A stretch of DNA of 64,000 bases, from the UHGV virus genome UHGV-1383976, one strand, 5' to 3'. The translations under genes and the position numbers were made by a program. The notes under the pieces were generated by a model. It searched no databases. It worked only from the letters and a program-made list of their open reading frames with translations, and was not told the origin of the DNA. Each line of letters starts with the position of its first letter. The stretch's first letter is position 1. This DNA is from a virus. Shown piece by piece: positions 3,345 through 40,150 of this stretch.

Positions 3345-3350
3345 AAAAAA

Positions 3351-3388
3351 GGCTGGAAGTCAAATTTTTGACTTCCAGCTTATATTTT
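3351..3388. terminator. rho-independent terminator
   Basis: ggctggaagtcaaa/tttgacttccagc hairpin flanked by A/T runs. Confidence 0.55.
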
Positions 3389-3944
3389 ATGGGTTGGGTT
3401 CATCCTCTAATACTTGCCAACACGACATTCGTGTATAATATTTGTCTATATAACTATTACCTTTGAGCTTTTTATAGTCTTTATAAAGAGTATCCAATTG
3501 TTCTTTTACAGACATAGGAAAAATTCTTACATCTCGATAGGCATGATATATATCCATTATATTCGCGCGCAAGATATTCTTTTGGCTAATGGCTAGTAAA
3601 TTTATTTGTTCGCTTTGTCGAGTATTGGTTTCTTCAATTCTATCTAAGCGTTCATCAATCCCGTCAAGCCGAGTATCAATATTACCCAACTGTTTTTGTA
3701 TAGGGGCGAGTTTCTTTTCAATTTCTTTTCCGACTTCTCCTGCTCGTCTCTGTTTTATTTTACTCCAAAGACCTTGAAAGAAGCCAAATTTTTTACAAAT
3801 TTTTTCAAATCCATCGGCGACAAGGTAAATAGCTATAACTACGCCACCGATAAGTTCTGGTGAAAGTTCCATTCGCTCACCTCCTCGTCTTATAGAAGTA
3901 GCAATTAGAGCATTTATTATACAGAATTTTGATGCTCTCTCCAA
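3387..3944 (-). CDS. membrane-anchored coiled-coil protein, hypothetical
   Basis: TM segment then charged helical repeats. Confidence 0.4.
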   Translation of the reverse strand: MERASKFCIINALIATSIRRGGERMELSPELIGGVVIAIYLVADGFEKICKKFGFFQGLWSKIKQRRAGEVGKEIEKKLAPIQKQLGNIDTRLDGIDERLDRIEETNTRQSEQINLLAISQKNILRANIMDIYHAYRDVRIFPMSVKEQLDTLYKDYKKLKGNSYIDKYYTRMSCWQVLEDEPNP

Positions 3945-10785: not shown

Positions 10786-10871
10786 GCGGGTGTGTCGGAA
10801 TGGGTAGACGATATGGACTTAAAATCCATTGGCGGGATGCTGTACGGGTTCGAGTCCCGTCACCCGTACCA
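10786..10871 (+). tRNA. tRNA-Leu(TAA), type II
   Basis: manual fold: anticodon arm atgga-cttaaaa-tccat; T-arm acggg-ttcgagt-cccgt; long variable arm; CCA encoded. Confidence 0.7.
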
Positions 10872-11054
10872 AATGATAATAAGTAGTGCAGTGAATTCTT
10901 CCTAAGCCAATGTGTATGGTAGGCCAATCAAGATAATTAGGGTTAAGTATTCATGGGTCATGCACGGCTCTGCTTATTATCATTACCAACTGTCGTTCTC
11001 AATAGCGACTTAGAAGCAATTCTCAAAAAGTATCAAAAAGAAAGGAGAAAAGGG

Positions 11055-11957
11055 ATGTCATTTTTCGTAAGGACAGCAACTGATCGGTATGGGGATACAA
11101 ATAGTTATCCTCGTTGGGGCAGAATAGTGGGATGCGCTATAGGAGCACTACTTGTTCTGATTATAATTCTCTCTTGTTTCACCAAAGTTCCTACTGGTAA
11201 TACTGGTATCGTCACTACATTTGGTAAGGTTGAGAATTATACGCTGGATTCAGGTTTTCATCTAAAGGCTCCATGGCAGAAGATAGTTAAGATGGATAAT
11301 CGCGTTCAGAAGCAGAGTATTGATTTGATGTGTTTTTCTTCTGATATTCAGGAAGTATCTATGACTTATACAATTAACTTCCAGATTAGTAAGAGTGATG
11401 CAATGACGATTTATTCTACCATCGGAACTCATTATTATGAAACCGTTATTATGCCTTGTATTACTGAGTCAGTTAAGACAGTTTGCGCACGATATACCGC
11501 TGAAGAGTTAGTGGGCATGAGAAGTGAACTTGCTTCAGCAATAGAGGCAGATCTTTCTGAGAAGCTAATTAATTACAACATAGAGCTTGTTTCTACCTCT
11601 GTTGAGAACATGGATTTTACTGATGTCTTTACTGATGCTGTTGAAGCAAAGCAGGTTGCAGCACAGAATAAGCTCACTGCACAGACTCGTGCCGAGCAGG
11701 AAGTTATTGAAGCCGAAGCGGCGGCTAAGGTTCAGGTAATTCAGGCACAGGCTGATGCAGATGCCATGGTTGCTAAGGCCCAAGCCGAGGCAGAAGCAAC
11801 TCGGATTCGTGCAGAAGCTGAAGCAGAAGCCAATGCAAAGGTCGCAGCGTCTCTAACAAATGCACTAATTGATTATACTTATGCGCAGCATTGGGATGGT
11901 AAGTATCCTACCTATTATGGTGGTAACGGTACAACTCCTGTTATCGATCTTAGATAA
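11055..11957 (+). CDS. SPFH/band-7 (prohibitin/HflK-like) membrane protein
   Basis: N-terminal TM, SPFH core, C-terminal Ala/Glu/Gln-rich coiled coil. Confidence 0.7.
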   Translation: MSFFVRTATDRYGDTNSYPRWGRIVGCAIGALLVLIIILSCFTKVPTGNTGIVTTFGKVENYTLDSGFHLKAPWQKIVKMDNRVQKQSIDLMCFSSDIQEVSMTYTINFQISKSDAMTIYSTIGTHYYETVIMPCITESVKTVCARYTAEELVGMRSELASAIEADLSEKLINYNIELVSTSVENMDFTDVFTDAVEAKQVAAQNKLTAQTRAEQEVIEAEAAAKVQVIQAQADADAMVAKAQAEAEATRIRAEAEAEANAKVAASLTNALIDYTYAQHWDGKYPTYYGGNGTTPVIDLR

Positions 11958-11995
11958 ATAAATGAGCTGGCATCTCAATAAACTGCCATTAATAT

Positions 11996-12071
11996 GCCCA
12001 GATAGCTCAGCAGGTAGAGCAGAGGATTGAAGATCCCCGTGTCGCTAGTTCGATTCTGGCTCTGGGCACCA
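11996..12071 (+). tRNA. tRNA-Phe(GAA)
   Basis: manual fold: acceptor gcccaga/tctgggc; anticodon loop ttGAAga; CCA. Confidence 0.65.
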
Positions 12072-12242
12072 TTTGGGATTGTTTACTGTTTCTTGTTCCC
12101 TTAATTGCAAAAGTGCATGAGTAGCAATTAAAAAACATCTAAGCGGCGTGTATCGTTGGTCATTCGAGGGCTATGTCAAGGCTTAAAAGACCACAGTCGA
12201 TTGGGGTTGGTAAACCTCCTGCGGGGAAGCTTCCATTATTAT

Positions 12243-12325
12243 GGGCGAGTGGTGGAACTGGTAGACACAGTAGCCTTAGGAGCTACCACTTCAGTGTAGG
12301 GGTTCGAGTCCCCTCCCGCCCACCA
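12243..12325 (+). tRNA. tRNA-Leu(TAG), type II
   Basis: anticodon arm gtagc-cttagga-gctac; T-arm agggg-ttcgagt-cccct. Confidence 0.65.
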
Positions 12326-12445
12326 TAAGTCTCCAAGAGGATGGATTCCGGCTAAACTACCACCGGCGCACAATGTGTGATATGTGGCTTTGTCATTTGT
12401 GGAGACTATAATAAATAAAAACGAAAGTAAGCCGTTTTGAAATAT

Positions 12446-12530
12446 GGGGGATTGGTGAAATAGGTAGACACGTGGCACTCAAAATGCTATGGCGAGAGCC
12501 GTATCAGTTCAAATCTGATATCCCCTACCA
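12446..12530 (+). tRNA. tRNA-Leu(CAA), type II
   Basis: anticodon arm tggca-ctcaaaa-tgcta; variable hairpin ggcgagagcc; T-arm atcag-ttcaaat-ctgat. Confidence 0.6.
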
Positions 12531-12553
12531 TTTACACAATAAAAGGAGATAAA

Positions 12554-13138
12554 ATGTCAAAGAATTTTTACATTAGTGACACCCATTTTGGACACGCTAA
12601 CATTCTGAGATTTGATAGACGCCCATTCAATTCTGTTGAAGAAATGAACGCCGCGCTCATCAAGAATTGGAATGACGCAGTTGACCCGAATGACAATATT
12701 TACATACTGGGCGATTTTTGCTGGGGCAAGTCTGATGAATGGATTGATATTTTGTCTCAGCTCCAAGGCAACAAATATCTTATTGCAGGCAACCATGACT
12801 TGCGTAATCCTCCTTCTACTGTGCGGCGGTTCTTTCAGGATTGGCGCGACTACAAAGAAATTTCTAACAACGATCGTAAGGTTATAATGTGTCATTATCC
12901 GATTCCATTTTACAAGTCAGATTACAACTCAAACACTTATATGTTATTTGGTCATTTGCATACAACATTTGAGAATGAATATCTGGAAAATTTGCGATAT
13001 CAAATAGAAAATGATCCTTATGAGCGGCCAGCCAAAAATCTTTGTCAGTTTTATAACGTCGGCTGTATGATGCCGTGGATGGACTATACACCGCGCACAT
13101 TGGATGAAATTGTAGATGGATTTGCTAAGTTCCATTGA
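12554..13138 (+). CDS. calcineurin-like metallophosphoesterase
   Basis: DTHFGH, GDF, GNHD motifs. Confidence 0.65.
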   Translation: MSKNFYISDTHFGHANILRFDRRPFNSVEEMNAALIKNWNDAVDPNDNIYILGDFCWGKSDEWIDILSQLQGNKYLIAGNHDLRNPPSTVRRFFQDWRDYKEISNNDRKVIMCHYPIPFYKSDYNSNTYMLFGHLHTTFENEYLENLRYQIENDPYERPAKNLCQFYNVGCMMPWMDYTPRTLDEIVDGFAKFH

Positions 13139-13150
13139 AGGGGAATAGGC

Positions 13151-13702
13151 ATGGCAGTAAATAAAGGATATTTAACAGCAAAAACAGATAAAGAGTCTGA
13201 TGAAGTATATACACCAGCATATGCTGTTCGACCTTTGGTTAAGTATTTGCGATTTTTTGAAAAAATAAAGGGGCATCCAATAAAAATTTGGTGTCCTTTT
13301 GATACGCAAAGCTCGCAATATGTTCAAGTGTTTAGAGAAGCTGGTTTTGAGGTTATTCACTCTCATATTGAGGAAGGGAAAAATTTCTTTTTCTACGAAC
13401 CCGATGAACGGTATGATATTATTATTTCGAATCCACCTTTTTCACAAAAGGACAATGTTTTGAAACGTTTGTTTGAGTTAAACAAGCCATATGCGATGTT
13501 ATTGCCAATTCCAGCCTTGCAAGGGCAAAAGCGTTTCCCTTATATAAAAGATGGACTACAATATCTTGGTTTTGATAAGAGAATTAATTATTATACTAAT
13601 GCAGATTTTTCTCAAGTGCAAAAAGGGGTTTCTTTTGGTTCTTGTTATTTGTGTAAGCAATTTCTTCCAAGAGATTTAATTCTTGAAGAGTTGGAAGCGT
13701 AA
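13151..13702 (+). CDS. phage Dam-like N6-adenine DNA methyltransferase
   Basis: DEVYTP and IIISNPPFSQ motifs. Confidence 0.6.
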   Translation: MAVNKGYLTAKTDKESDEVYTPAYAVRPLVKYLRFFEKIKGHPIKIWCPFDTQSSQYVQVFREAGFEVIHSHIEEGKNFFFYEPDERYDIIISNPPFSQKDNVLKRLFELNKPYAMLLPIPALQGQKRFPYIKDGLQYLGFDKRINYYTNADFSQVQKGVSFGSCYLCKQFLPRDLILEELEA

Positions 13703-13707
13703 AAAAT

Positions 13708-13795
13708 GCGGGATGAACTCAGACGGCTCTGAAACCGGTCTTGAAAACCGTGGGCAGGCAAAACCTGTGGGGATCGACACCTCCGTCCCGCGCCA
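13708..13795 (+). tRNA. tRNA-Ser(TGA)-like, type II
   Basis: acceptor gcgggat/gtcccgc; anticodon cggt-cttgaaa-accg; non-canonical T-arm (tgggg-atcgaca-cctcc). Confidence 0.5.
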
Positions 13796-13799
13796 ATAT

Positions 13800-13885
13800 G
13801 CGGAGTAAATTTAGAAGGTCTAAAGCTCCCCTGCTAAGGGATGCGTGGTGAAAACCATGGGGTTCGCGTCCTCTGCTCCGCGCCA
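13800..13885 (+). tRNA. tRNA-Ser(GCT)-like, type II
   Basis: acceptor gcggagt/gctccgc; anticodon tccc-ctgctaa-ggga; T-loop lacks A58. Confidence 0.45.
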
Positions 13886-13973
13886 GCCCCATCTTCAGTT
13901 CTATAGCTGGTGAAGATGGATAGGCGATGAAGTATAGCAATAATATGGCATGAGAACTATGATAGTGTTTCAT

Positions 13974-14061
13974 GAGAGCGTAACTCAGTCGGTAGAGTTT
14001 TATAGCGTGAAGGGATATGCTATTGAATGCCCTTAGTCGCCAGTTCGAATCTGGCCGCTCT
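13974..14061 (+). ncRNA. tRNA-like element with aberrant anticodon region
   Basis: good acceptor (gagagcg/cgctctc), D-arm (tagagtt), and T-arm (gccag-ttcgaat-ctggc); ~17 extra nt where the anticodon arm should be. Confidence 0.4.
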
Positions 14062-14091
14062 CATTAAAAATATATATGAAGAGGAATAGTT

Positions 14092-14346
14092 ATGGCAATT
14101 AATATCATTAGTAAAGGAATAGATTTAAATAATCCTACCTATGAAACACAGTGTCCTCATTGTAAATGTGTGTTTACCTATCAAGATTCTGATACTACTC
14201 AAAAACCTACTGGTAGATATTATAAAGATTTTGAGGAGTATTTCATTAAGATGGATGATTGCAATAGGAAAGAAATTGCTGTGTATATTGATTGCCCTTG
14301 GTGCCATGAAAGAAACCATGTGAAAGATAAATATGTAAAAATATAA
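14092..14346 (+). CDS. small zinc-finger protein
   Basis: CPHCKC...CPWCHE. Confidence 0.5.
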   Translation: MAINIISKGIDLNNPTYETQCPHCKCVFTYQDSDTTQKPTGRYYKDFEEYFIKMDDCNRKEIAVYIDCPWCHERNHVKDKYVKI

Positions 14347-14385
14347 TAAATGGCTCAGTAGCTCAGAGGCAGAGCGTGCGGCTGT

Positions 14386-14852
14386 TTACTTGACCTTATC
14401 ATTCTTTATGAAAAAGATAATGAATAGTAAGCAAAAAGGAAACATTACAGAACTTGAAACAATGTTAGCATTTCTAAAACTTGGTTATAATGTTTTAACT
14501 CCATATGGAGATTGTGAGAGATATGACTTTGTTGTAGATGTTAATGGAAAATTTATTCGAGTTCAAGCTAAAACATCAAATACTGAAGATGATGGTGCAT
14601 CATTTAAATTTTCTTGTAGAAGTTGCAATAGAAAAGATGGTAAAATTGTGCATCATATATATTTAAGCGAAGAAATTGATTACTTCGTAACTACTTTTAA
14701 TGGAAAATGTTATTTAATTCCAGTTGAAGAGTGCGGAGCTGATAAAAGACTTCGTATTCTTCCAACAAAAAATGGACAGGTAAGAGGTATTACTTGGGCA
14801 AAAGATTATGAATTGGAGGAAGTAGTAAAGAATTGGTAAGCTGATGTGTAAG
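14386..14852 (+). mobile_element. insertion (candidate intron or homing-endonuclease cassette) in the tRNA anticodon loop
   Basis: flanked by a U (5') and a G (3') if the anticodon is GTC; ORF fills almost the entire insert. Confidence 0.45.
14408..14839 (+). CDS. Vsr/DUF559-like PD-(D/E)XK nuclease (putative homing endonuclease)
   Basis: ERYDFVVDVNGKFIRVQAK motif; located inside the tRNA; ATG preceded by an AT-rich leader. Confidence 0.5.
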   Translation: MKKIMNSKQKGNITELETMLAFLKLGYNVLTPYGDCERYDFVVDVNGKFIRVQAKTSNTEDDGASFKFSCRSCNRKDGKIVHHIYLSEEIDYFVTTFNGKCYLIPVEECGADKRLRILPTKNGQVRGITWAKDYELEEVVKNW

Positions 14853-14899
14853 CAACCGCAAGGTCGAGATATCGTAATTCTCCTGAGCCTCCATATTAT

Positions 14900-14975
14900 G
14901 CGCCATTAGCTCAGTTGGTAGAGCATGGCACTTTTAATGCTGGGGTCTGCGGTTCAAGTCCGCAATGGCGCACCA
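14900..14975 (+). tRNA. tRNA-Lys(TTT)
   Basis: acceptor gcgccat/atggcgc; anticodon loop ctTTTaa; T-arm tgcgg-ttcaagt-ccgca; CCA. Confidence 0.7.
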
Positions 14976-14995
14976 TAAATTTTGGAGGAAGTAAA

Positions 14996-15256
14996 ATGAA
15001 GCTGACAGAGAAAGGGACAATTGTATTTGCCGCTGCGTTAGAGCATTGTCCCAATGAACCTTTTACAGCGGCCAGTTTATCAACAAAGTGTGGCCTTCCT
15101 ATTTCTGCAGCTACACTCAATGGTATCACCAATCAGGGACTTATGACTCGACTTGGCGGTTCGCCCGTTAAGTTTGAGTTAGTTTCTAACGCGAAAGACT
15201 TGTATAACAAGGCGCGCGAAGGCAAATCGGCGAATGAAAATTTAAATAAAGCGTAG
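14996..15256 (+). CDS. hypothetical protein
   Basis: RBS ggagg + ATG; ends with TAG, in frame with the downstream Dam-like ORF. Confidence 0.45.
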   Translation: MKLTEKGTIVFAAALEHCPNEPFTAASLSTKCGLPISAATLNGITNQGLMTRLGGSPVKFELVSNAKDLYNKAREGKSANENLNKA

Positions 15257-15322
15257 GTTGCGAAAAATGATGAGTTTTATACTCAATATCAAGACATTGA
15301 AAAAGAGATTCTGCAGTATGAC

Positions 15323-16099
15323 TTGCGTGGTAAAAAGGTTTTATGTAATTGTAATGATGGTTTGACAAGTGAGTTCTTAAATTATTTTGTCAATAATTTT
15401 GATTGTCTTGAACTTGATGAACTTGTTTGTTTGACTTATAATAAAGATGGAAAGGCATATAAGTATACCAAGCGTCCTAAAGTTGACCTTATGGTTGAAC
15501 CACTCATCGGTTCTGGTGCATTTGATTCACAGGAAGGCCGAGATGCTCTTGCCGCTTGTGATATTGTTATAACAAATCCTCCCTTTAGTCAATTTCGAGA
15601 TTTTGTCAATTTGATTTTGTCTTACAAAAAAGATTTTTTGATAATTGGCAGTAAAAATGCTATTACCTACAAAGAATTTTTTCCACTTTTAATGAGTGGT
15701 AAAGTTCATATTGGCAATTTCAATGTTTCTACTTTTAAACAGCCAGATGGTACTGATAAAAAATTTGGTAATATCGGTTGGTTTACGACTCTTTCTGTTG
15801 TAAAAGCGGCACAACCAATTCCTTTAACAGCAACCTATGATCCGCAAAATTATCCTACTTATGATAACTTCCGTGCAATTGAAGTAAGTCGCACAGCTAA
15901 TATTCCTAAGGACTATGATGGCGTAATGGGGGTTCCTATTTCATTTCTGGACAAATTTTGTCCTACTCAATTTAAAATTGTTGGATGGAGTCGTCATAAT
16001 GACGAAGGAATGGATGGCGGATACTGGACGGGTGGTTGTGCTGATGCTACTATAAATGGTAAGCAAGTTTATCGCAGAATTTTGATTCAGAAAATTTGA
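15323..16099 (+). CDS. Dam-like N6-adenine MTase paralog (start uncertain)
   Basis: IVITNPPFSQ motif; the homologous DEFYTQ motif lies upstream (15269–15286) in frame, right after the TAG. Confidence 0.5.
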   Translation: MRGKKVLCNCNDGLTSEFLNYFVNNFDCLELDELVCLTYNKDGKAYKYTKRPKVDLMVEPLIGSGAFDSQEGRDALAACDIVITNPPFSQFRDFVNLILSYKKDFLIIGSKNAITYKEFFPLLMSGKVHIGNFNVSTFKQPDGTDKKFGNIGWFTTLSVVKAAQPIPLTATYDPQNYPTYDNFRAIEVSRTANIPKDYDGVMGVPISFLDKFCPTQFKIVGWSRHNDEGMDGGYWTGGCADATINGKQVYRRILIQKI

Positions 16100-16124
16100 T
16101 TTTTATTAAAATTTTCGATATAAT
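16096..16124 (+). promoter_or_regulatory. family-A promoter
   Basis: TTGATT-17-TATAATATATATAGAAAG. Confidence 0.6.
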
Positions 16125-16339
16125 ATATATAGAAAGTTGAGAGAGAAACTTCCAGAGGTTGCGAATTAGCTATTCAATACAAAATCTCTCAAAATGATAA
16201 GGTTTTCGGTGTTTTACTTATCGGTTTTCTATGCAAAATGGTTCTAACAAGCCAGCGTGCGCGCGAGTAAAAGTTGTTAATAAGCGGTTGGCATACGTGA
16301 TAAGCCGTTGCCCCAGCGAGAAGATTTAATAAATCTTCT

Positions 16340-16699
16340 TTGTTGGTGGTGTTTAATAAAAATGCGTCAGTAGCAACCCAGTGGTATGATTTGATTATAG
16401 AAAAAGATGATAAATTTGAAACAGTACAATGTAAGTGTACTGGTTCTCAGAACAACGTCATTAGTCTAAAGTCTTGTGGCGGTACAAAAGGTGAAGCTTA
16501 TGACAATGTTCTTAATCATTCTGGGCTTGATAAATTATTTTGCGTGGATATAAATGGTAATATGTACGTGATCCCGATGTCAGAGGTTGTGGCATCTGGA
16601 AATACTAAGCAAATTACTTTACGTACTGAACCCACAGCAAATAATCAAGGTTTTCAAACTCATAAATTTCGAGTTCAATTCTCGTTTCAAGCGTCGTAA
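16340..16699 (+). CDS. hypothetical protein
   Basis: ORF with TTG/GTG starts only. Confidence 0.3.
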   Translation: MLVVFNKNASVATQWYDLIIEKDDKFETVQCKCTGSQNNVISLKSCGGTKGEAYDNVLNHSGLDKLFCVDINGNMYVIPMSEVVASGNTKQITLRTEPTANNQGFQTHKFRVQFSFQAS

Positions 16700-16750
16700 A
16701 CCCGTTTCCTTCGAGAGTAACTGGATCGACACCAGTCTGACGCACCATTT

Positions 16751-16824
16751 CGGGAATGTGGTGTAATGGTAGCACACTTGATTTGGGGTCAAGGAGAGTG
16801 GTTCGAATCCAACATTTCCGACCA
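16751..16824 (+). tRNA. tRNA-Pro(TGG)
   Basis: anticodon arm cttga-tttgggg-tcaag; T-loop ttcgaat; CCA. Confidence 0.6.
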
Positions 16825-16828
16825 AGAT

Positions 16829-16915
16829 GCTGAGTTCCCATAGTGGTCGATTGGAGCGGTCTTGTAAGCCGCAGACTTCGTGTCCGCATCAGTTCGAATC
16901 TGATACTCAGCTCCA
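16829..16915 (+). tRNA. tRNA (anticodon TGT, long variable arm; Thr-like/atypical)
   Basis: acceptor gctgagt/actcagc; anticodon gcggt-cttgtaa-gccgc; 15-nt variable arm; T-arm atcag-ttcgaat-ctgat. Confidence 0.5.
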
Positions 16916-16919
16916 CTAT

Positions 16920-16995
16920 AAGGGAGTAGCCCAATAGGTAAGGCAGCAGTCTCCAAAACTGAAGATTAAAGGTTCGAGTCCTTTCTCTCTTGCCA
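16920..16995 (+). tRNA. tRNA-Trp(CCA)
   Basis: anticodon loop ctCCAaa; T-arm aaagg-ttcgagt-ccttt; CCA. Confidence 0.6.
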
Positions 16996-17029
16996 ATAAT
17001 TTCATTTTTCAAATTTCCTTTCTTAAAAT

Positions 17030-17059
17030 TTGACTTTTTCAAAAAATCTTGATATAATA
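17030..17059 (+). promoter_or_regulatory. family-A promoter driving the noncoding region
   Basis: TTGACT-18-TATAAT; downstream transcript is ORF-free. Confidence 0.55.
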
Positions 17060-17079
17060 TATACATAAGATAAAGAAAA

Positions 17080-17805
17080 GAAAAAGTCAAAAGGAGGACA
17101 ATGCTAGTGCCACCTACACGTGGTGTCCTCTGTTTTCGCTAAGAGCGCTGGCATATATCCAATTAAATAATACTAACTCAGTGAAGACGGAATTCGATGT
17201 TCCGGCTGAGAAATTCCAGCTAGCACAGCAGAAACGAAACAAGGATACTTGTGGATACTGGACTGAGAGGCCATCGAGAGATGAGCCGAAGTAGAGCGGT
17301 CGCTCAAGTGGGAAGAAGAGCAGGAATTGTGCTGAGTGAATCGCAAGCAAACGCAGCCGTGGAGTGGCGAGCGCAATAGACAGCTTGGTGAATAGCCAAG
17401 CCGAACCCAAGTTAGGTCTTAGTTGGTGCCTGTGGCAATCCTTGGGAAAACCAATAAGCTCGTTCCGTTGAGACGACAGGGAATGTGAAATCTGTCTTTG
17501 ACACTCTACAGCATCCGAGTAGCGGAACACAACGGGGACTTATAGAAAAGATGGTCAGTAATAATAGAAATTGCTATTTTATCTTTCTGAACATCCCGTG
17601 AAAGGTAGAGGTAATCAACCCTCTGGCGGATTAGGCGACATTAGACACTTGGGCTATCCAAGAGTAACAAGTCAATGTTGTTGCTGGGGTAAGAAGTGTA
17701 TGGGCGACGGCCTGTATGCTCAGACTTATCTCCCGCGTGGCAGAATATGCTTGAAGGTTTATCGAGGTAGGGCGAAGGCCCAGTAATATTTAGTTGGATT
17801 TATAT
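17080..17805 (+). ncRNA. candidate large structured ncRNA (~700 nt, GC-rich, ORF-free)
   Basis: no credible ORF on either strand; GC content clearly above flanks; promoter upstream; tRNAs on both sides. Confidence 0.45.
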
Positions 17806-17806
17806 G

Positions 17807-17878
17807 GCAGGACGAGAAGGTTCTCCATTTGGCCTCATAAGCCAGATTTCGTGGGTTCGATTCCCACTCCTGCATCCA
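17807..17878 (+). tRNA. tRNA-Met(CAT)-like (short D-arm)
   Basis: anticodon ttggc-ctcataa-gccag; T-arm gtggg-ttcgatt-cccac; CCA; 4-nt D-loop. Confidence 0.45.
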
Positions 17879-17881
17879 TAT

Positions 17882-17956
17882 GTCGTATTGGTGTTAGTGG
17901 CAGCACGATAGCCTTCCAAGCTATATGGAGGAGTTCGAGTCTCCTATACGACTCCA
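17882..17956 (+). tRNA. tRNA-Gly(TCC)
   Basis: acceptor gtcgtat/atacgac; anticodon atagc-cttccaa-gctat; CCA. Confidence 0.65.
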
Positions 17957-18102
17957 TTTTAGAAATGTCTTGAACGACAGGAGGTTTTGCTTATGGATAT
18001 AACAAAATCTAATGAGGACTGCGGTCCAACGAACAGGACAAAGAGTTGGGCCTCTCTATAAAAAGGCCCTCGTAAGAAAATTTGGAAAGGAAGTAAAGTA
18101 AA

Positions 18103-18516
18103 ATGAAGTATTATAGTGATGTTCTTCATACGCTGTTTGATACTCAGGATGCGCTTGAGGAAGCCGAAGCGAAGAAAACCGCGGCAGATGCTGAGAAAGT
18201 ACATGCAAAAGAAACGGCTAGAAAACGTAGAGAAGAAGATAAAGAACGTTTCCTTGAGTTGAGAAAGAAGTTCAATAAGATCAGCACTGAGTATGACAAG
18301 ACATCTAAAGAGTATATGGACTATGCTGATAAGATGATGCAGGAGTATTCATTAGATGCTGTGCTGGATTGGCTTTCTGATGCTTTTCTTTATGATTGTG
18401 CCACAGCTAAGACGAAAGCAGATGCATCATCTACCACAACTGCTACCACGAAAACTGCGCGGGAGCCTGAAAACTTGGGAGAAATTCTTGCCCGTATTTT
18501 TGAGGATATGCGCTGA
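18103..18516 (+). CDS. hypothetical charged coiled-coil protein
   Basis: RBS + ATG; ORF. Confidence 0.5.
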   Translation: MKYYSDVLHTLFDTQDALEEAEAKKTAADAEKVHAKETARKRREEDKERFLELRKKFNKISTEYDKTSKEYMDYADKMMQEYSLDAVLDWLSDAFLYDCATAKTKADASSTTTATTKTAREPENLGEILARIFEDMR

Positions 18517-18519
18517 GAA

Positions 18520-19080
18520 TTTTGAATAAATTGGCGCGATTGATTATCAAATCGTCCCACGGAGTTGAAGCTAAAACGTTAGCGGTGAATATGGCCATTC
18601 CCGCAAGCTCGGCGGTTTGTTAGGCAACCGCGCGGATGTAAATTATTGATAGGAAACTTTGGTTTAATTTACTCACTGAAGTTCTCCAAAAGTCGAACTA
18701 GAGCCTAAACTGAGTTCGCAGTGCTGAGGCCGGCATACGCTCGGAGAGGATGCGTTATTGAGCTAATTGGATTAGTGTCAATGTGAGGCAACGGTGGCCA
18801 ACTCTTAGAGAGCCACGCGACAGAGTTATGCTAAAAGGCAATGCCCAGTATCGGTGCCACTAGGGTTGATAGACAAGTAGTAAAAGTCAGGTGAAGACAA
18901 TACCGGCTGACATAATTGGGACGTAGTCATAGGCGTAGGCCGTGCCAAAACTAAAAATCAAAGTGTGCGGCACACGAAACCCAAGTCAGATGCGGGCGAT
19001 TGAAACGGCGCCCTCAACCCATATAAGGTTTTACAAGAGATTTTCCTTGTGTTAGACTAAAAAATCTCTTTTTTGTATAA
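18520..19080 (+). ncRNA. candidate large structured ncRNA (~560 nt, GC-rich, ORF-free)
   Basis: no ORFs; GC-rich; immediately upstream of tRNA-Gln. Confidence 0.4.
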
Positions 19081-19084
19081 ATTT

Positions 19085-19159
19085 AGAGGTATAGTGTAAT
19101 TGGCAACACATCGGCCTTTGACGCCGTATTTATAGGTTCGAGTCCTGTTACCTCTGCCA
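19085..19159 (+). tRNA. tRNA-Gln(TTG)
   Basis: acceptor agaggta/tacctct; anticodon loop ctTTGac; CCA; terminator follows. Confidence 0.6.
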
Positions 19160-19901: not shown

Positions 19902-20222
19902 ATGGATAAATATACTGGCTATTATGAGTGGCATCCATCAGAACAAGGACTTGAGGATTTTTATTCTGGCCTTTTTACACCTGCAGGGATGGGCTTGGTT
20001 GAAAACCAGTATTTGATTATCTATGACTCCGAAGATAAGGTTATAGATAAATATTTTTGTAAGAACAATGAATTTGAAAAGGTTCATTATATGGCGCTTC
20101 AAAGCGATTACTGTGGGGTTATCAAACCACGCAATGTATATCAGGAATTGGCTATTCATTCCCTTATGGATAGACGTGTTCCCGTAAAAGTTTTGGGTGG
20201 CGTCTTTGGCTCGGGTAAATAA
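19902..20222 (+). CDS. phoH: PhoH-like ATPase, exon 1 (ends inside the Walker A GGVFGSGK)
   Basis: ORF stops immediately after GSGK; continuation found at 21150. Confidence 0.55.
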   Translation: MDKYTGYYEWHPSEQGLEDFYSGLFTPAGMGLVENQYLIIYDSEDKVIDKYFCKNNEFEKVHYMALQSDYCGVIKPRNVYQELAIHSLMDRRVPVKVLGGVFGSGK

Positions 20223-21149
20223 CTTGCCCCTTCTTAGGGCGACCTAAGAATGAAAATCGCGTGAATTGCTGGAAGCCTAAGCCGCAAGGTATGGTAATCA
20301 GCAGCCAAGCCGTTTTAGCAACGGAAGGTTCAACGACTATCCCGGCAGGGAGTAGGGAGCAATCCCGAAGCGCGCGACAACTTTTGTTTTGTTTTTATTT
20401 TAATAAAGGAGGTGAGGTTATAAATAAGTGGACAGATGAACAAAAAGCAGAAATTATTGATGATTATACCAAAAAAGGTATGACTTTGGCAGAGATTGGA
20501 AAAAAATTTCATTCTAAAGGAGATACAATTAGTAAATATCTAAAGTCTTGGGATATTCCCATCAATCGTAGAAAGAAAAATCGGCTTATGAATGAAAAGT
20601 TTTTTTCTATAATTGACTCAGCTGAAAAGAGTTATTTTCTGGGCTTGTTATTCGCTGATGGTTCAGTTGTTTTAAATAGCGAGCGGGCGCCATATGTTTC
20701 TTTAGAATTAGTAGAAAAGGACAAAGAAATATTAGAAATTTTCCGTTCATTATTAAATTGTCAAAATGACTTATACTACAATAAGCGAGATAATCGGAAG
20801 AATGGAACATATACTTTTGGAGTAAGAAGTCAATTACTAGCTGATGATTTAGCTAAATTTAATATCATTCCAAATAAAACTTATGAAACAACCCAAGTAA
20901 TTTTCCCAGAAAATTTTCTTATTGATTTTCTAAGAGGGTATATTGATGGCGATGGCTCTATTTATCAAAATGTTTATAAGGCCGTTTGGAATGGACAAGA
21001 TGCTAAACGAATTATAAACATTCTCTATTTAAAGAACGATGGCATTGCGCTCTCTCGAAAACGAGAACGAGCTAAGTTAGCTCAACAAAACAAAAGTTGA
21101 TGATATAGTCTAATCCCTTTTTAAAAATATCGGGAAACCGAGGGTATAA
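20223..21149 (+). mobile_element. putative group I intron with LAGLIDADG homing endonuclease
   Basis: interrupts PhoH between Walker A and downstream motifs; ~180-nt structured non-coding 5' part. Confidence 0.55.
20420..21100 (+). CDS. LAGLIDADG homing endonuclease (two motifs) with N-terminal HTH
   Basis: LGLLFADGS and LRGYIDGDGS; no canonical start after RBS aaaggaggtga; frame open from 20261 through intron RNA. Confidence 0.65.
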   Translation: MNKWTDEQKAEIIDDYTKKGMTLAEIGKKFHSKGDTISKYLKSWDIPINRRKKNRLMNEKFFSIIDSAEKSYFLGLLFADGSVVLNSERAPYVSLELVEKDKEILEIFRSLLNCQNDLYYNKRDNRKNGTYTFGVRSQLLADDLAKFNIIPNKTYETTQVIFPENFLIDFLRGYIDGDGSIYQNVYKAVWNGQDAKRIINILYLKNDGIALSRKRERAKLAQQNKS

Positions 21150-21683
21150 ATGAAGGATCTTCTAATGAGCGGGGCTTGTTTTAGCTTTATCGAAAAAGGT
21201 ATTTTTGAAAAACTTGTTTATATACGCCCCAATATCACGCTTGAAGGAGTGCCTGATATTGGCTACCTCAAAGGCGGAATGGACGAAAAGCTTGAATGGA
21301 CTTTAGCTCCATTATGGGATAAGTTCGGTGGCCGCGAAGCTACTCAAAATCTTGTTGCTTCTGGCAAGATTGAGCTTGTAGCCTTACCTTTTATCAAAGG
21401 TCGCAGTTTTGAAAACAGCATTATTTATGTCAGTGAAGGCCAGAACATTACTCGTAAAGTCGCTGGCAATATTATTAGTCGCGCTGGTGAGGGCACTGAA
21501 ATTTGGATAAATGGCGACTATCACAGTCAGACCGATCGCAGAATGTTTGAGGTTGATAATGGTATGCGTGCGATGGAGGAAACCCTGAAAGGCAATGCGC
21601 TCTATGAAACTATTTATCTTCCTATTACAGAGCGTTCTGCTGTAGCTCAACTTGCTGGAATTGTTTGTAACACTGAAAATTGA
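21150..21683 (+). CDS. phoH: PhoH-like ATPase, exon 2
   Basis: IIYVSEGQNIT and IWINGDYHSQTD match PhoH DEAQN / TGDxxQxD motifs. Confidence 0.55.
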   Translation: MKDLLMSGACFSFIEKGIFEKLVYIRPNITLEGVPDIGYLKGGMDEKLEWTLAPLWDKFGGREATQNLVASGKIELVALPFIKGRSFENSIIYVSEGQNITRKVAGNIISRAGEGTEIWINGDYHSQTDRRMFEVDNGMRAMEETLKGNALYETIYLPITERSAVAQLAGIVCNTEN

Positions 21684-32142: not shown

Positions 32143-33138
32143 ATGATAGGCGTAGACCTAAATCAATATCGTAATCTACCTGATTACGCACAACTTAAAA
32201 AGGATGGTTATGAGTTCGCCATTATAAAACTGGCAACTGGTGTAACCTTTACTAACCCGCTTTTTCAAACCCAGTTTAGTGGTTGTAAGTCAGCCGGCCT
32301 AAACATCGGCGTTTATACTCGTGCCGACAAGCAACCTACAAGCGGCGCACAGGAAGCTGCCTATGCACTCAACATACTAGGTAATCGTCATGTAGATTTC
32401 CCCATCTACTATGACGTAGAGGGAGAAACACTAAATCTTTCAAAAGACAAGCTGACTCAGCTGGCTCTTGATTTTGGTAAAGCAATAAAACGCGCAGGAT
32501 ATCGCTGGGGTATTTATACATCCCGCGCACATTTCAAATGCTTTGACCTTGACAGGCTGAAAGAAGCTGGCGCATCTATATGGTGCGCCGCCTATGATAA
32601 TCAAGCTGGTATGGAGTGCGACATTTGGCAAAAGTCAGATAAAGGCTCTATTACAGGATATTCTGGACCAGTTGATGTAGATGTTTTATATAATGAAAGC
32701 ATAATACAGAAGGAGGAAAATAAAATGAGTTTGAATTTGATAAAATGTTTTCAAACACAAGGCGCGTGGTATAATCAAACCACAAATGGAACTCCTGTTG
32801 GGGTATGTTGGCACGATACCGGCGCTGGTAACCCAACATTGAAGCGCTATGTCCAGCCATCTACTAATGACCCCGATTATAATTATTTTATAAACCTTAT
32901 CGGCAAGAACAATAATGGCAATCACTGGAATCGTATGGCCGCAAATCAGGCAGGATTGAACGCTTGGATTGGTCAACTCGCGGATGGCAGTGTTGCTACT
33001 GTTCAGGCTGGCCCTTGGGAAAAGCGTCCTTGGGGTGTTGGCTCTGGCAGATACGGTTCACTTAATGGTGATAAGAATGTGCCTAATGATAAGTTTTGGA
33101 TCCAGTTTGAGATTACATCGTTGCTAGTCTCCGCGTAA
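32143..33138 (+). CDS. endolysin exon 1 (GH25 muramidase + N-terminal half of amidase_2)
   Basis: IGVDLNQY...GYEFAIIKAT (GH25); VCWHDTGAGN...GSLNGD (amidase_2 front half). Confidence 0.65.
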   Translation: MIGVDLNQYRNLPDYAQLKKDGYEFAIIKLATGVTFTNPLFQTQFSGCKSAGLNIGVYTRADKQPTSGAQEAAYALNILGNRHVDFPIYYDVEGETLNLSKDKLTQLALDFGKAIKRAGYRWGIYTSRAHFKCFDLDRLKEAGASIWCAAYDNQAGMECDIWQKSDKGSITGYSGPVDVDVLYNESIIQKEENKMSLNLIKCFQTQGAWYNQTTNGTPVGVCWHDTGAGNPTLKRYVQPSTNDPDYNYFINLIGKNNNGNHWNRMAANQAGLNAWIGQLADGSVATVQAGPWEKRPWGVGSGRYGSLNGDKNVPNDKFWIQFEITSLLVSA

Positions 33139-34182
33139 AGCGATTTGCGTGTAAAAATACATATCGAATTGCTGGAAAACCGTAAAGCTATTCTTGCTAC
33201 AACGTAAGGATGAAACAAGCCTAAGCGTGAAAGCCGCGAAAGCAGAAAGAAAAGAATAGATGGCGTATGGTTAAATCCTAAGCGCTATATAATTGGCAAT
33301 CAGCAGCTAAGCCTTGAATAAAGGAAAGTTCAACGACTAAGTGCCTTGCAAGCGATTGGCAAGGACAGTGGTATGCGGCTCATTGAGCCGAAGATATAGT
33401 CTGTGCTTCGAGAGAAATCCGAAGGAGCGAAAGCTCAGTGCGGGGTAGCGCCCAAAAAGTTTATTTTGAATGGAGAAAGAAATGACTTATAAAGAATTTA
33501 TTGACAATATTTTAGAAGAACGAGGACGTTTTTCGTGTGGAGAGGAATATCACGAGAGGCATCACATTCTTCCTAAGTGCAAAGGCGGCACAGATGATAA
33601 AGAAAATTTGATTGACTTATTTGCTAAAGAGCATTTTATTGCGCATAAATTGTTAGCTGAAGAAAATCCTGAAGATATAAGTTTGGTTAGGGCTTATCAA
33701 TGCATGACAATAGCTAGAAATCCAAAAACTGCACGATATATTGCTTCTTCTGAAGAGTATGAGGAAGCAAGAAAAATGTTTTCAGAAGCTCTCAAAGAAT
33801 TATATAAAGACAAAACAAAGCATCCAAGCTATGGCAAACATATTAGTGAAGAAAGAAAACAACGAATTAGTGAAGCCAATAAAGGAAATAAGTATTGCGT
33901 TGGCCGGAAAGTTTCAGAAGAAACACGCAAGAAAATAAGTGAAGCCAATTCGAACCCTTCCGCCGAAACGCGTGAAAAAATGAGTCAATCTCAAAAGAAG
34001 CTCGCACGGTGGGATGGAGCAAAGAATCCTAAAGCTCGAAAAGTTGTTCGTCTTTCTGATGGGAAAGTTTATGATTGTATTAAATATGCCGCCGAAGAAA
34101 ATAATATTCCTCTCTCCACTTTCAAAAGTAGATTACACAAAGGCAAAGGCGATTTTGTGTATTTCGAAGACTATCAAAATAA
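33139..34182 (+). mobile_element. putative group I intron carrying an HNH endonuclease
   Basis: 330-nt GC-rich ORF-free 5' segment + HNH ORF; splits the amidase_2 domain. Confidence 0.55.
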
Positions 34183-34192
34183 ACAGCACTAA
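33470..34192 (+). CDS. HNH homing endonuclease with NUMOD-like repeats
   Basis: HHILPKCKGGTDDKENL..HF.AH HNH motif; repeated ISEE/EANKG modules. Confidence 0.7.
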   Translation: MEKEMTYKEFIDNILEERGRFSCGEEYHERHHILPKCKGGTDDKENLIDLFAKEHFIAHKLLAEENPEDISLVRAYQCMTIARNPKTARYIASSEEYEEARKMFSEALKELYKDKTKHPSYGKHISEERKQRISEANKGNKYCVGRKVSEETRKKISEANSNPSAETREKMSQSQKKLARWDGAKNPKARKVVRLSDGKVYDCIKYAAEENNIPLSTFKSRLHKGKGDFVYFEDYQNKQH

Positions 34193-35265
34193 ACACAAAC
34201 AGATGTGACGATTACGCACACAACCAACCTTGTCGCAGATCTTATTTTGAACAAGCCTATCAGCAAGCTGTCGAATTTACTGCCTACATTTGCCAACTCT
34301 ATAACATAGACCCGTTTGGCACCGCCAATTACCGTGGCCACGATATTCCGACAATTTGTTGCCACTATGATAGCTATAAGTTTGGTTTTGGTTCCAATCA
34401 CAATGATGTCTATCAATGGTTCAATCGTTTTGGTAAAACTATGGATGATGTCAGACGCGATGTTGGCGCACTAATGGGTAAGGTTGTCGTTCCTGATACT
34501 CCCGACCCTGTCATTCCTTCTCAGCCATCTCGGCCTTCTAACCCTTATCCGACACTTAGGGTTAGCGCACATGGCGTTGCCGTCAAAACTGCGCAACAAC
34601 GTCTTATCGCACACGGTTATGATGTTGGTTCCGCTGGTGCTGATGGCTGGTTTGGTGAAGGTACTCTCAAGGCCGTCAAGAGGTTTCAGTCTGATAAGGG
34701 TCTTACTGTTGATGGCATAATTGGCTCTGCTACTTGGACAGCGCTAAACAAAGAGCCAGAGAAGAAAGAAGAACCAGTGCAGCCTGTGCAACCAAGTGAG
34801 CCAGCTAAGCCTATCCAACCATCCACTAATCGTCCGACAATCGGCGTTGGTGATAGTGGAGCTTACGTAAAAGAAGCCCAAACAATGCTGAAAAAGCTGG
34901 GCTATAACATTGGCTCCTATGGTGCGGATGGTGTGTTCGGCAACTCTACCAAAGGTGCAGTTCTCAATTTCCAAAAGAAGAGCAACCTCGATGCTGATGG
35001 CATTGTTGGCCCGAACACTTGGGCCAAACTCGATAAACAAATTGCCGCGCTATCTGATAATTCGACTAGCTCTAGTGGAGTTCCATTCCTTGTTCGAGTC
35101 AATTCAAATGCCCTTAACATTCGTAAAGGCCCCGGTACTAATTATGCTATTGCTCGTACTATAACCGACCGTGGCACCTACACAATAGTTGAAGTATCTG
35201 GTGATTGGGGCAAACTCAAGAGCGGCGCAGGCTGGATAAATCTGAATTATACTACCAGAGTTTGA
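34183..35265 (+). CDS. endolysin exon 2 (amidase_2 C-terminal half + 2×PG_binding_1 + SH3)
   Basis: frame open from 34183: RGHDIPTICCHYDS (amidase_2 Zn site); two PG-binding repeats; SH3b. Confidence 0.6.
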   Translation, partial: TALNTNRCDDYAHNQPCRRSYFEQAYQQAVEFTAYICQLYNIDPFGTANYRGHDIPTICCHYDSYKFGFGSNHNDVYQWFNRFGKTMDDVRRDVGALMGKVVVPDTPDPVIPSQPSRPSNPYPTLRVSAHGVAVKTAQQRLIAHGYDVGSAGADGWFGEGTLKAVKRFQSDKGLTVDGIIGSATWTALNKEPEKKEEPVQPVQPSEPAKPIQPSTNRPTIGVGDSGAYVKEAQTMLKKLGYNIGSYGADGVFGNSTKGAVLNFQKKSNLDADGIVGPNTWAKLDKQIAALSDNSTSSSGVPFLVRVNSNALNIRKGPGTNYAIARTITDRGTYTIVEVSGDWGKLKSGAGWINLNYTTRV

Positions 35266-36358: not shown

Positions 36359-37564
36359 ATGCTTGATGTAAAAATTTTTGCACGTTGTATTGAACAGACC
36401 GCTGAAGAGCAAATATACGATTTAGCCGCCTCGTCGATAGGAGAAAACGCGCACATACGAATAATGCCGGATGCGCACGCTGGTAAGGGATGCGTAATTG
36501 GAACTACTATGTTAGTAAAAGATAAGATTTGCCCTAATATTGTTGGCGTTGACATTGGATGCGGAGTTACTGCTGCAAAAATTAACTGTCCTTTGATCAT
36601 GGATGAGTTAATGTTTTTGCGCGAACGCCTTGTAGATGGCGCAATACCATCAGGAAGCACTATATACAACGAATTTAGAGATTGGGATCCTTTTTTTGAA
36701 CTTGGCGCAACTATCCTTCGTAAGTTGAGATGTAAGGAAATTTACAATAAGTGTGAAATTGATTATTTTGCTAAGTCTATGGGAACACTCGGAGGCGGAA
36801 ATCATTTCATTGAAATAGACGAAGACTCCGATGGCAATCATTGGATTGTTGTACATACTGGCTCGCGCAATTTGGGCCTTCAGGTAGCAAAGTATTATCA
36901 AAACAGAGCAGAAATGCGAATTCTTGAAGAATATACTCACAAGCGTAATGCAGCTATCACTACGCTGAAAGAGGAAGGCCGCCAGCGTGAAATTTCAGAG
37001 GTATTAGCCTCTATCAAAAAAGATGCGCCATCTAAGTTTGATTATTTAGTAGATAATGACTATAATAACTATCTTCGCGATATGGCACTTTGTCAGAAGT
37101 GGGCAAAATATAACCGAGCAAATATTATTTATAACATTGCTGCAATTTTAAATCGCAAAGTTACAATGACAGTTGAGTCAGTTCATAACTATATAGATTT
37201 TTCAACTCAAACACCTATCCTCCGCAAGGGCGCAATTTCGGCTAAGTATGACGAGATTTGTCTTATTCCACTCAATATGCGGGATGGTACGCTACTGTGC
37301 CGTGGAAAAGGTAACTCTGATTGGAACTTATCAGCTCCACATGGAGCCGGACGACTTATGTCTCGCGCTCAGGCAAGAAAAGAATTATCTTTAGACGAGT
37401 TTGAAAAATCAATGGACGGCATTGTGTCAAACGTTTGTGCAGAAACCATTGATGAAGCACCTTTCGCTTACAAGAATTGGGAAGAGATTGAAGAAGCTGT
37501 GCGGCCTACCGTTGAAATTATTGACCACTGGAAGCCAATTTTCAATTTTAAGGCGATGTCTTAA
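36359..37564 (+). CDS. rtcB: RtcB RNA ligase (3'-phosphate/5'-OH)
   Basis: MPDAHAGKG, GVDIGCG, GGGNHF.E, HTGSR.LG, HNY, RKGA, SAPHGAGR motifs. Confidence 0.8.
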   Translation: MLDVKIFARCIEQTAEEQIYDLAASSIGENAHIRIMPDAHAGKGCVIGTTMLVKDKICPNIVGVDIGCGVTAAKINCPLIMDELMFLRERLVDGAIPSGSTIYNEFRDWDPFFELGATILRKLRCKEIYNKCEIDYFAKSMGTLGGGNHFIEIDEDSDGNHWIVVHTGSRNLGLQVAKYYQNRAEMRILEEYTHKRNAAITTLKEEGRQREISEVLASIKKDAPSKFDYLVDNDYNNYLRDMALCQKWAKYNRANIIYNIAAILNRKVTMTVESVHNYIDFSTQTPILRKGAISAKYDEICLIPLNMRDGTLLCRGKGNSDWNLSAPHGAGRLMSRAQARKELSLDEFEKSMDGIVSNVCAETIDEAPFAYKNWEEIEEAVRPTVEIIDHWKPIFNFKAMS

Positions 37565-39143: not shown

Positions 39144-39221
39144 GGCCGGATAACTCAGATGGTAGAGAACCAGTGCGGTTAGGCGCTGGAGGAGGCGGTG
39201 GTTCGAATCCACCTCGGCCCA
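39144..39221 (+). tRNA. atypical tRNA-like (7-bp anticodon stem, 6-nt loop GGTTAG)
   Basis: perfect acceptor ggccgga/tcggccc and T-arm ggtgg-ttcgaat-ccacc; non-canonical anticodon arm. Confidence 0.4.
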
Positions 39222-39224
39222 ATT

Positions 39225-40073
39225 AGATATGAAGGCGACATACAGTTATTATAGTCGCCGGACGTACTGCTCCGTCCATTACGAACAGAGCAGCCCCGCA
39301 AAACGAGGGTGAGAGTTGAGTTTGTTGGTTTTACTTGAAACCGCCGTCGGGGTAAGTGGCGTTACATCTTACCAAAAAAATCCGTCTGACTGCAGTAAGG
39401 GCGGTTGGTTTGTAGGTTTGCCAATAGGTATAAGTCTAGATACCAATAAAATACTTACCAAAGAGGAGTAATATGGCTGAAGTCCTCCAGCGTGGTTGAT
39501 ATGTTGAAATGCCTAGGCCACGCACATATGTCAGTTTAGTTTAACGAGGGAAAACAACGCCCGTCAAGGCGTAATTTCGGGTTCGAGTCCCGAAACTGTC
39601 CTTGGTTTGACAGGCCAAGAAATTTGTCAGGTGCGGCCCTTTGTCGCCGGTCGAGACTCCGTCCGGAAATGAGCTACGTCTAAGTAAGAAGCGTGAACTT
39701 AGCGCTGATGTGCGTGATGCATCGGTTGCGTGTCCAAAACACGACAGGTTTGGTTGAGTTTTCTACACAAAATTCAATTGGGTCAGGCCGCCCACAGGAT
39801 GGCCGCGGGTTCCACTCCCCGAACGAAAAACAATCGGGAAATCTCTTGTTTTTCTCAATTTTGTTAGTAGTTAGTCGCATTGATGAAATTGCTTTTTGGA
39901 GTAAAGTTGTGAGTAGCTAAAGAAATGACAATTCTTTTTCTACTCAAAAAGCCAAGTATCCGCCTCTGCTTGGACATCCGCGCGAGGTTGCGTGTTGATG
40001 AAAAGCGTGGAAGGCAGTTATATAATGGGGACTGCCGCATAGTTGGTTTAGGAGAGTTGCCAGCTACGGAAAT
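39225..40073 (+). ncRNA. candidate large structured ncRNA (~850 nt, GC-rich, ORF-free, with tRNA-like modules)
   Basis: no ORFs; embedded T-arm-like cgggttcgagtcccg; same transcription unit as the flanking tRNAs. Confidence 0.45.
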
Positions 40074-40150
40074 GGCGCATTGGACGAACTGGTAGAGTCA
40101 CCACCCTTTCAAGGTGGAACTTAGGGGTTCAAGCCCCCTATGCGTCACCA
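40074..40150 (+). tRNA. tRNA-Glu(TTC)
   Basis: anticodon ccacc-ctttcaa-ggtgg; T-arm agggg-ttcaagc-cccct; CCA. Confidence 0.65.

Follow-up and report, generated by a model that had tools for sequence, protein, structure and literature searches.

Group I introns in phage lysin genes

Group I introns are common in the lysin genes of Streptococcus thermophilus phages, according to the work of Foley et al. (2000) as it is described in PMC3952083. In phage TP-EW, a 1,016-base pair (bp) insertion in the lysin gene carries an open reading frame (ORF) for a homing endonuclease of 205 amino acids (aa) and is absent from the near-identical phage TP-J34 (PMC3952083). Staphylococcus phages of the K/G1/85 type bear an intron in the endolysin gene, which is present in 20 of 205 genomes (PMC6507118), and the phage K genome paper of O'Flaherty et al. 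(2004) is cited for this endolysin intron in PMC7997843. As a rule, phage group I introns hold HNH, GIY-YIG or LAGLIDADG endonuclease genes in their loops, and when PhiPA3 and PhiKZ infect the same cell, an intron-encoded HNH nuclease of the former knocks out the RNA polymerase gene of the latter (PMC11878797). Here, we describe a stretch of 64,000 nucleotides (nt) from the virus genome UHGV-1383976, referred to below as the window, in which positions 33114-34202 very probably (roughly 90%) constitute a mobile group I intron. It interrupts a phage gene for a multidomain endolysin within the part that encodes Amidase_2, at FWIQFEI/CDD, where the slash marks the predicted splice junction. All features of this locus lie on the + strand.

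Like the S. thermophilus lysin introns, the element is an insertion of about 1 kilobase (kb) that carries a homing endonuclease ORF and is absent from some close relatives. The host gene family and the insertion site are different, those of the window being Amidase_2 and FWIQFEI/CDD. As in the Staphylococcus cases, a group I intron interrupts the multidomain endolysin of a large phage that infects Gram-positive bacteria. The architecture of staphylococcal lysins is CHAP-amidase-SH3b, which differs from the GH25-Amidase_2-PG_binding-SH3 arrangement of the window. The PhiPA3 system is similar in that an intron-borne HNH nuclease faces an intron-less target allele in related phages of the same habitat; its target is an RNA polymerase gene, whereas the presumed target here is a lysin gene and a comparable competition is only a possibility. 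The locus thus differs from known lysin introns only in its host gene family and site, its phage lineage and its particular pairing of ribozyme and endonuclease. A megablast search of the whole locus against deposited phages gave no match, which indicates a phage without a close deposited relative.

A lysin gene interrupted within its amidase domain

The lysin ORF starts at ATG 32143, downstream of an AAGGAG ribosome-binding site. Exon 1 (32143-33113) encodes a GH25 muramidase domain (80.9 bits) and the N-terminal ~60% of Amidase_2; it ends after ...FWIQFE with AU, the first two positions of an Ile codon. Read without splicing, its frame gives ...KFWIQFEI followed by a TSLLVSA read-through and a stop at 33136-33138. 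A second frame is open from 34183 and reads ...CDDYAHNQPCRR...RGHDIPTICCHYDS..., then two PG_binding_1 domains and SH3_3 up to 35265. Within it, exon 2 (34203-35265) completes the Ile codon with its third base and encodes the remaining, C-terminal portion of Amidase_2 (CDDYAHNQ...CCHYDS...), both PG_binding_1 domains and an SH3_3 match that falls below its cut-off, up to the stop codon. Removal of the intron produces a 677-aa lysin composed of GH25, Amidase_2, two PG_binding_1 and SH3 domains, with FWIQFEICDDYAHNQPCR as the predicted junction peptide.

Amidase_2 (PF01510) is detected in the spliced protein only, with 31.2 bits against a Pfam cut-off of 26. The match covers residues 218-372 and spans the junction at residue 323/324, and neither exon alone is listed. 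Used as a protein-search query, the spliced domain retrieves 1,435 relatives, the best of them 73% identical at 96-100% coverage and uninterrupted, and most of the close homologues have a precomputed PF01510 match. An alignment of 13 homologues is free of gaps at the junction, where F124, W125, Q127, F128, E129 and I130 on one side and C131 and D133 on the other are invariant; splicing restores this motif, FWIQFEI/CDD. Further invariant amidase residues are divided between the exons, with H30 and D31 in exon 1 and C183, H184, H196 and D198 in exon 2, and this conservation implies that neither half can be a complete amidase. A search of PDB chain sequences with the amidase profile matched no solved structure. 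Homologues annotated as endolysin adjoin a holin, which together with the GH25, Amidase_2, PG_binding_1 and SH3_3 domains suggests a role in peptidoglycan degradation and lysis.

The boundaries of the intron can be read from alleles that lack it. A profile of the spliced amidase domain, run against viral contigs, identified two of them, L045 and L046, in which the domain is uninterrupted and 93% identical at the protein level. The L045 lysin is a single 683-aa ORF with the same N-terminus and lies behind the same two tail-fibre-like genes. Two more intron-less alleles occur in metagenome contigs (L188 and L189). All four read ...TTTGAGAT/ATGYGATGAT... across the site. Exon 1 of the window is colinear with them up to T33113, where it ends in ...CAGTTTGAGAT, the same bases that precede ATGYGATGAT... 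in the intron-less alleles, and exon 2 begins with ATGTGACGAT at 34203. The predicted spliced junction is therefore CAGTTTGAGAT/ATGTGACGATTACGCACACAACC, from which the intron-less alleles differ by reading ATGYGATGATTATGC; the insertion-site sequence of L045 is TTTGAGATATGCGATGAT. Since the bases flanking the intron differ, its position is unambiguous, and the element spans 33114-34202, or 1,089 nt, with the ribozyme first and the HNH homing endonuclease gene second.

A preliminary description of the window had correctly recognized an endolysin gene broken inside Amidase_2 by a group I intron of ~1 kb, with an exon 1 that holds GH25 and the front part of Amidase_2 before running into stops. 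It had suggested alignment with uninterrupted lysins as a way to find the splice junction, and the colinearity of those alleles with exon 1 plus exon 2 now fixes it at 33113/34203. The intron span that it gave, 33139-34182, has to be abandoned, as the intron does not start after the stop at 33138. Its exon 2 was drawn from 34183; the open frame from that position and the domains encoded there stand, and the exon itself starts at 34203.

The boundaries look canonical at both ends and in their P10 pairing. At the 5′ splice site, the last exon base, U33113, is joined to G33127 by a U·G pair inside a 7-bp P1. The terminal G of the intron (omega-G, 34202), assigned from the sequence and from colinearity with the intron-less alleles, directly precedes the 3′ splice site. 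The 3′-exon strand of P10, as read from the sequence, is GUGACGAU at 34205-34212 and pairs with AUCGUUGC at 33117-33124 over 8 bp. The synonymous exon variants found in two other intron-containing alleles, L001 (GUGAUGAU) and L002 (GCGAUGAU), retain all eight pairs through G-C/G·U exchanges.

In total, the intron is carried by the window, L001, L002, ENA ERZ27261302 and Logan ERR1137000, and is missing from L045, L046, L047, L188 and L189. Both states coexist in one metagenome, 3300045988, from which L001 and L002 (with intron) and L045 and L046 (without) derive. When metagenomes were scanned for the exon sequence of the window without the intron, the L045/L046 type, at ~80% identity overall, was the only intron-less allele to turn up. 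Compared with the window gene (32143-35265), the L045 lysin (1892-3943) has GH25, Amidase_2 and two PG_binding_1 domains in common and a different C-terminal module, with DNA identities of ~72-95% in exon 1 and ~63-82% in exon 2. The wall-binding end of the lysin gene is mosaic.

Ribozyme fold and covariation

The Rfam group I model RF00028 matches 33075-33424 over all of its 253 positions. The score is 71.2 bits, above the gathering threshold of 50, with E = 4e-16 across the 64-kb window, and the sister alleles reach 70.0-70.1 bits. A match to such a model is what the preliminary description had proposed to look for. The alignment contains the canonical elements J3/4-P4 (AAUUGCUGG), J6/7-P7 (GUUCAACGACUA) and J8/7-P7′ (GAAGAUAUAGUCU). 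The ribozyme part of the intron has stops in all three frames and is free of ORFs, as had been described, over 356 nt rather than the 330 nt given earlier. Its reported GC-richness holds only relative to the endonuclease gene: the GC content is 43.8% in the ribozyme and 36.0% in the endonuclease gene, compared with 43-47% in the exons and 39.8% in the whole window.

The predicted fold begins with the P1 hairpin (33109-33131), in which 33109-33115 (GAGAU/UA) pairs with 33125-33131 (UAGUCUC) according to both sequence reading and RNAfold; the internal guide sequence (33117-33131) lies within the P1 region. It is followed by P2 (33132-33151), an 8-bp hairpin with a GCGA tetraloop found by RNAfold. 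The catalytic core (33160-33403), defined by the Rfam alignment and RNAfold, consists of P3 (33160-33166/33369-33375), P4 (33170-33175/33300-33305), P5 (33180-33182/33294-33296), P6 (33306-33307/33328-33329 and 33312-33315/33321-33324), P7 (33334-33339/33397-33403), which is the guanosine-binding helix, and P8 (33377-33381/33385-33389). A long P5 extension includes the 8-bp P5a (33188-33195/33252-33259), and an extra hairpin, P7.1 (33344-33349/33359-33364), is inserted between P7 and P3. The region of P9 and P9.1 (33406-33436), again from the Rfam alignment and RNAfold, forms two GAAA-capped hairpins, with P9 at 33406-33410/33420-33424, to which inner pairs are added, and P9.1 at 33425-33428/33433-33436. 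Rfam itself places P1 and P2 in exon 1 (33079-33117), an arrangement with several non-standard pairs that is at odds with the splice site deduced from the intron-less alleles; it was rejected as a misalignment, and the actual P1 and P2 fall within a 41-nt insertion of the Rfam alignment.

Related ribozymes (68-78% identity) were collected from viral contigs by a core-motif scan and local BLAST, with their ends set by Rfam. Sixteen of them were aligned with MAFFT and the structure of the window was mapped onto the alignment. Standard pairs occupy 85.8% of the cells, and 40 of the 67 pairs change on both sides; in controls with the partners displaced by 1-3 columns, the figures are 32-45% and 8-20 pairs. 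No observed covariation measure was reached in any of 500 shuffles. Compensatory changes affect 8 of 8 pairs in P5a, 7 of 8 in P2, 4 of 4 in P6a, 2 of 3 in P5 and 5 of 7 in P9. P4, P5, P5a and P6 are 98-100% paired (P4 99%), and P7 and J8/7 are invariant in the 16 relatives. P3, P7.1 and P8 are only 52-77% paired in this alignment, which is attributed to MAFFT misalignment around loops of variable length. The sole change in P9.1 is a C to U substitution in L002 that gives a U·G pair. The preliminary description had allowed for the case that no intron fold would be found; the Rfam match above the gathering score and the compensatory changes in P2, P4, P5, P5a, P6 and P9 among the 16 ribozymes show that the fold is present.

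The single extra hairpin P7.1 and the likeness to Kayvirus introns point to subgroup IA. The window ribozyme is 72-74% identical over ~205 nt to Kayvirus phage introns. In the Kayvirus phiIPLA-RODI, the endonuclease gene is found 3′ of the core, as here; the intron adjoins a virion structural gene instead of a lysin, and the nuclease is different. The closest deposited ribozyme is that of the Enterocloster phages CB457P2, CB473P1, CB473P2 and CB473P3 (OP172754-7), which is 72% identical to that of the window over 238 nt and scores 95.9 bits against RF00028. That intron has the same order of core first and endonuclease gene 3′, but its endonuclease is annotated as I-TevI-like ('intron-associated endonuclease 1') rather than HNH, and its host gene is a different, unannotated one. 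The combination of ribozyme and endonuclease in the window is the usual mosaic. The ribozyme lineage is thereby linked to introns of Enterocloster and Staphylococcus (Kayvirus) phages, and knowledge of group I introns in general is left unchanged.

Six viral contigs contain tandem ORF-less group I ribozymes of ~290 nt each (67-84 bits), on the same strand and ~40 nt apart: L175 (6430-7046), L153 (534-1168), L109 (593-1209), L110 (5964-6597), L101 (3169-3784) and L125 (1595-2210). This spacing implies a mini-exon of ~40 nt between two introns in these contigs.

The HNH endonuclease gene

The second part of the intron contains an HNH/NUMOD3 homing endonuclease gene (33482-34192), whose ATG is preceded by GGAG and whose stop codon lies 10 nt upstream of the 3′ splice site. 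It encodes 236 aa; an alternative start at ATG 33470 would give 240 aa. Exactly the 236-aa product is called in public assemblies, while an exact-product look-up with the 240-aa version found none, which favours 33482 as the called start. Pfam reports three NUMOD3 stretches totalling 40.8 bits and a marginal HNH match (22.3 bits, cut-off 21.4). The protein matches PHROG 655 'homing endonuclease' (E = 2e-38) and is ~34% identical over 92% of its length to HNH endonucleases of the T-even MobD/MobE type. The latter (PHROG 655) have the same order of an HNH motif followed by NUMOD3 repeats, and differ in that they are free-standing between phage genes, whereas the window enzyme is encoded inside an intron. 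No solved structure was matched in a PDB-chain sequence search with the HNH protein. The ORF is intact and shows 17 synonymous and 4 non-synonymous codon differences from L001, a pattern that indicates purifying selection.

It is plausible that the endonuclease gene occupies a peripheral loop 3′ of P9.1 that is closed by an 11-bp helix. The two arms, 33459-33469 and 34174-34184, form a perfect inverted repeat (I8), the 3′ arm being inside the last endonuclease codons. When the ORF is deleted and the remainder folded with RNAfold, the two arms pair with each other, and 33439-33442 pairs with the 3′ tail. The HNH/NUMOD ORF that the preliminary description saw between the exons is thus borne out by Pfam; its place would be in a 3′ peripheral loop and not simply after the RNA.

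Relatives of the enzyme, 47-64% identical, are encoded by the IMG/VR contigs L003-L007, several of which come from metagenome 3300045988. No Rfam-detectable group I ribozyme lies within 3 kb of these HNH genes. They may be free-standing or may reside in introns that the model misses.

Selection across the junction and alternative explanations

Three intron-containing alleles that have diverged by several per cent (window, L001 and L002) allow selection to be followed across the site. Relative to L001, exon 1 differs at 72 synonymous and 6 non-synonymous codons, and exon 2 at 48 and 7. In all three alleles, the first 79 codons of exon 2 (34204-34440) lack an in-frame ATG, GTG or TTG, and they differ from L001 at 15 synonymous and 0 non-synonymous codons and from L002 at 24 and 6, respectively. 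A start-less segment is thus selected as protein in the frame of exon 1, for which exon ligation is the only explanation. A start of its own for exon 2, raised in the preliminary description as a possible objection, is contradicted by the same 79 codons.

The divergence of the locus is uneven. It is lowest in the ribozyme (1.2-1.4%), ~3% in the endonuclease gene and 3.5-10% in the junction-side stretches of the exons. For the window and L001, the ribozyme value is 1.2% and that of the junction-side stretches (33000-33113 and 34203-34300) is 7-8%. The ~75 nt upstream of the site are 96-100% identical among intron-containing alleles and equally conserved in the intron-less ones.

The alternative that survives best, although very unlikely, is a split gene, in which translation yields a GH25-only enzyme that ends with the stop at 33138 and, independently, a wall-binding protein from ATG 34441, and the ribozyme is a dead relic or remains unspliced. 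Such arrangements do exist, since 9 of 205 Staphylococcus phages encode the endolysin as two adjacent genes (PMC6507118), and public calls for the identical locus list proteins of exactly 331 aa, 236 aa and 274 aa. This explanation would leave the 79 codons ahead of ATG 34441 untranslated, against their selection pattern in start-less alleles, and would distribute the invariant residues of one amidase over two proteins, neither of which reaches the Amidase_2 cut-off by itself. A relic ribozyme would also not be expected to be the most conserved part of the locus, and ATG 34441 has no obvious ribosome-binding site before it.

Still less probable is a decaying lysin gene, knocked out when a mobile element inserted into it, with lysis carried out by another enzyme. 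Nothing direct speaks in its favour, although the remainder of the window was not searched for another lysin. In three diverged genomes with the intron, the two exons remain intact, free of frameshifts and stops, and subject to purifying selection, and the insertion is exact at the codon level and equipped with canonical splice signals. That a free-standing HNH gene merely separates two independent genes without any intron, as automated annotation implies, draws on the L003-L007 relatives, which suggest that the endonuclease family also occurs without a recognisable intron, but it is already refuted by the Rfam match above the gathering score directly upstream of the endonuclease gene, the covariation-supported fold and the precise absence of the segment from intron-less alleles.

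Several observations nevertheless weigh against a mobile, splicing intron. P1 and P2 are misplaced by Rfam and depend on hand assignment, RNAfold and, for P2 only, covariation. The HNH assignment is based on a Pfam score barely over its cut-off. The 11-bp helix that would loop out the endonuclease gene is A+U-rich and invariant in the three alleles, and many comparable inverted repeats arise here by chance. A co-conversion signature was sought in the flanking exon and no clear tract was seen; the equal conservation of the upstream flank in intron-less alleles means that nothing is concluded on co-conversion. Finally, splicing, self-splicing and cleavage by the endonuclease are predictions made from sequence.

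Proposed splicing and homing

In the proposed mechanism, the lysin pre-mRNA would fold into the ribozyme from P1 to P9.1. An external guanosine would then attack after U33113, held in P1 by its U·G pair with the internal guide sequence, and P10 would align exon 2. The freed 3′ OH of U33113 would subsequently attack after the terminal G34202. The ligated mRNA (…GAGAU/AUGUGA…) would be translated into the 677-aa lysin. The HNH enzyme would be made from its own ribosome-binding site and presumably nicks or cuts the intron-less lysin alleles of co-infecting relatives, and recombinational repair would copy the intron into the cut alleles.

Two further roles appear doubtful but conceivable, alone or in combination: the HNH nuclease could act as a weapon that cuts the lysin gene of co-occurring intron-less sister phages, and the efficiency of splicing could set the ratio of a truncated GH25-only lysin to the full 677-aa enzyme and thereby tune the timing of lysis. 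An endonuclease-bearing intron that is optional among close phages (~125-165 kb) of one community provides a natural system for the study of homing and phage competition.

Annotation of the locus and other features of the window

The main value of the locus concerns annotation. A 677-aa, two-enzyme lysin is called as three genes in a way that loses the amidase, and lysin mining would miss or truncate the enzyme. Public calls split it into a 331-aa 'Glyco_hydro_25' protein, a 236-aa HNH protein and a 274-aa 'PG_binding_1/SH3_3' protein, with no amidase domain recorded. The same locus with an identical HNH protein is present in L186 (ENA ERZ27261302 k119_164321, 129 kb) and L187 (Logan ERR1137000).

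A second group I intron interrupts the gene of a PhoH-like ATPase (window 19902-21683). It spans approximately 20217-21152 and matches Rfam at 20207-20482 with 66.7 bits. Exon 1 of this gene ends with ...GGVFGSG and exon 2 continues with KDLLMSGA... (PF02562, 80.7 bits). Boundaries derived by hand would place the 5′ splice site after U20216 (P1 GGGU/GCCC) and the terminal G at 21152. A LAGLIDADG endonuclease ORF ends at 21100, and the true J8/7-P7′ (UGAUGAUAUAGUCU) is found at 21100-21113, from which the ORF appears to lie in the P8 loop.

The window also carries a full-length ROOL RNA (RF03087) at 17153-17800 (+), with 271.8 bits against a gathering score of 99.1, located within a tRNA cluster. 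Fourteen tRNA matches on the + strand are distributed over 10786-19156 and 39144-40147, eleven in one cluster and three in the second; large phages typically carry tRNA sets of this kind. The gene for an RtcB RNA ligase (36359-37564, +; PF01139, 198.3 bits) follows the lysin gene at a distance of ~1 kb and is 43-46% identical to RtcB genes from Bacillus phages, from a Bacteroides phage and from phage contigs of human faeces. Its presence alongside the tRNA clusters suggests a phage-encoded tRNA repair function.

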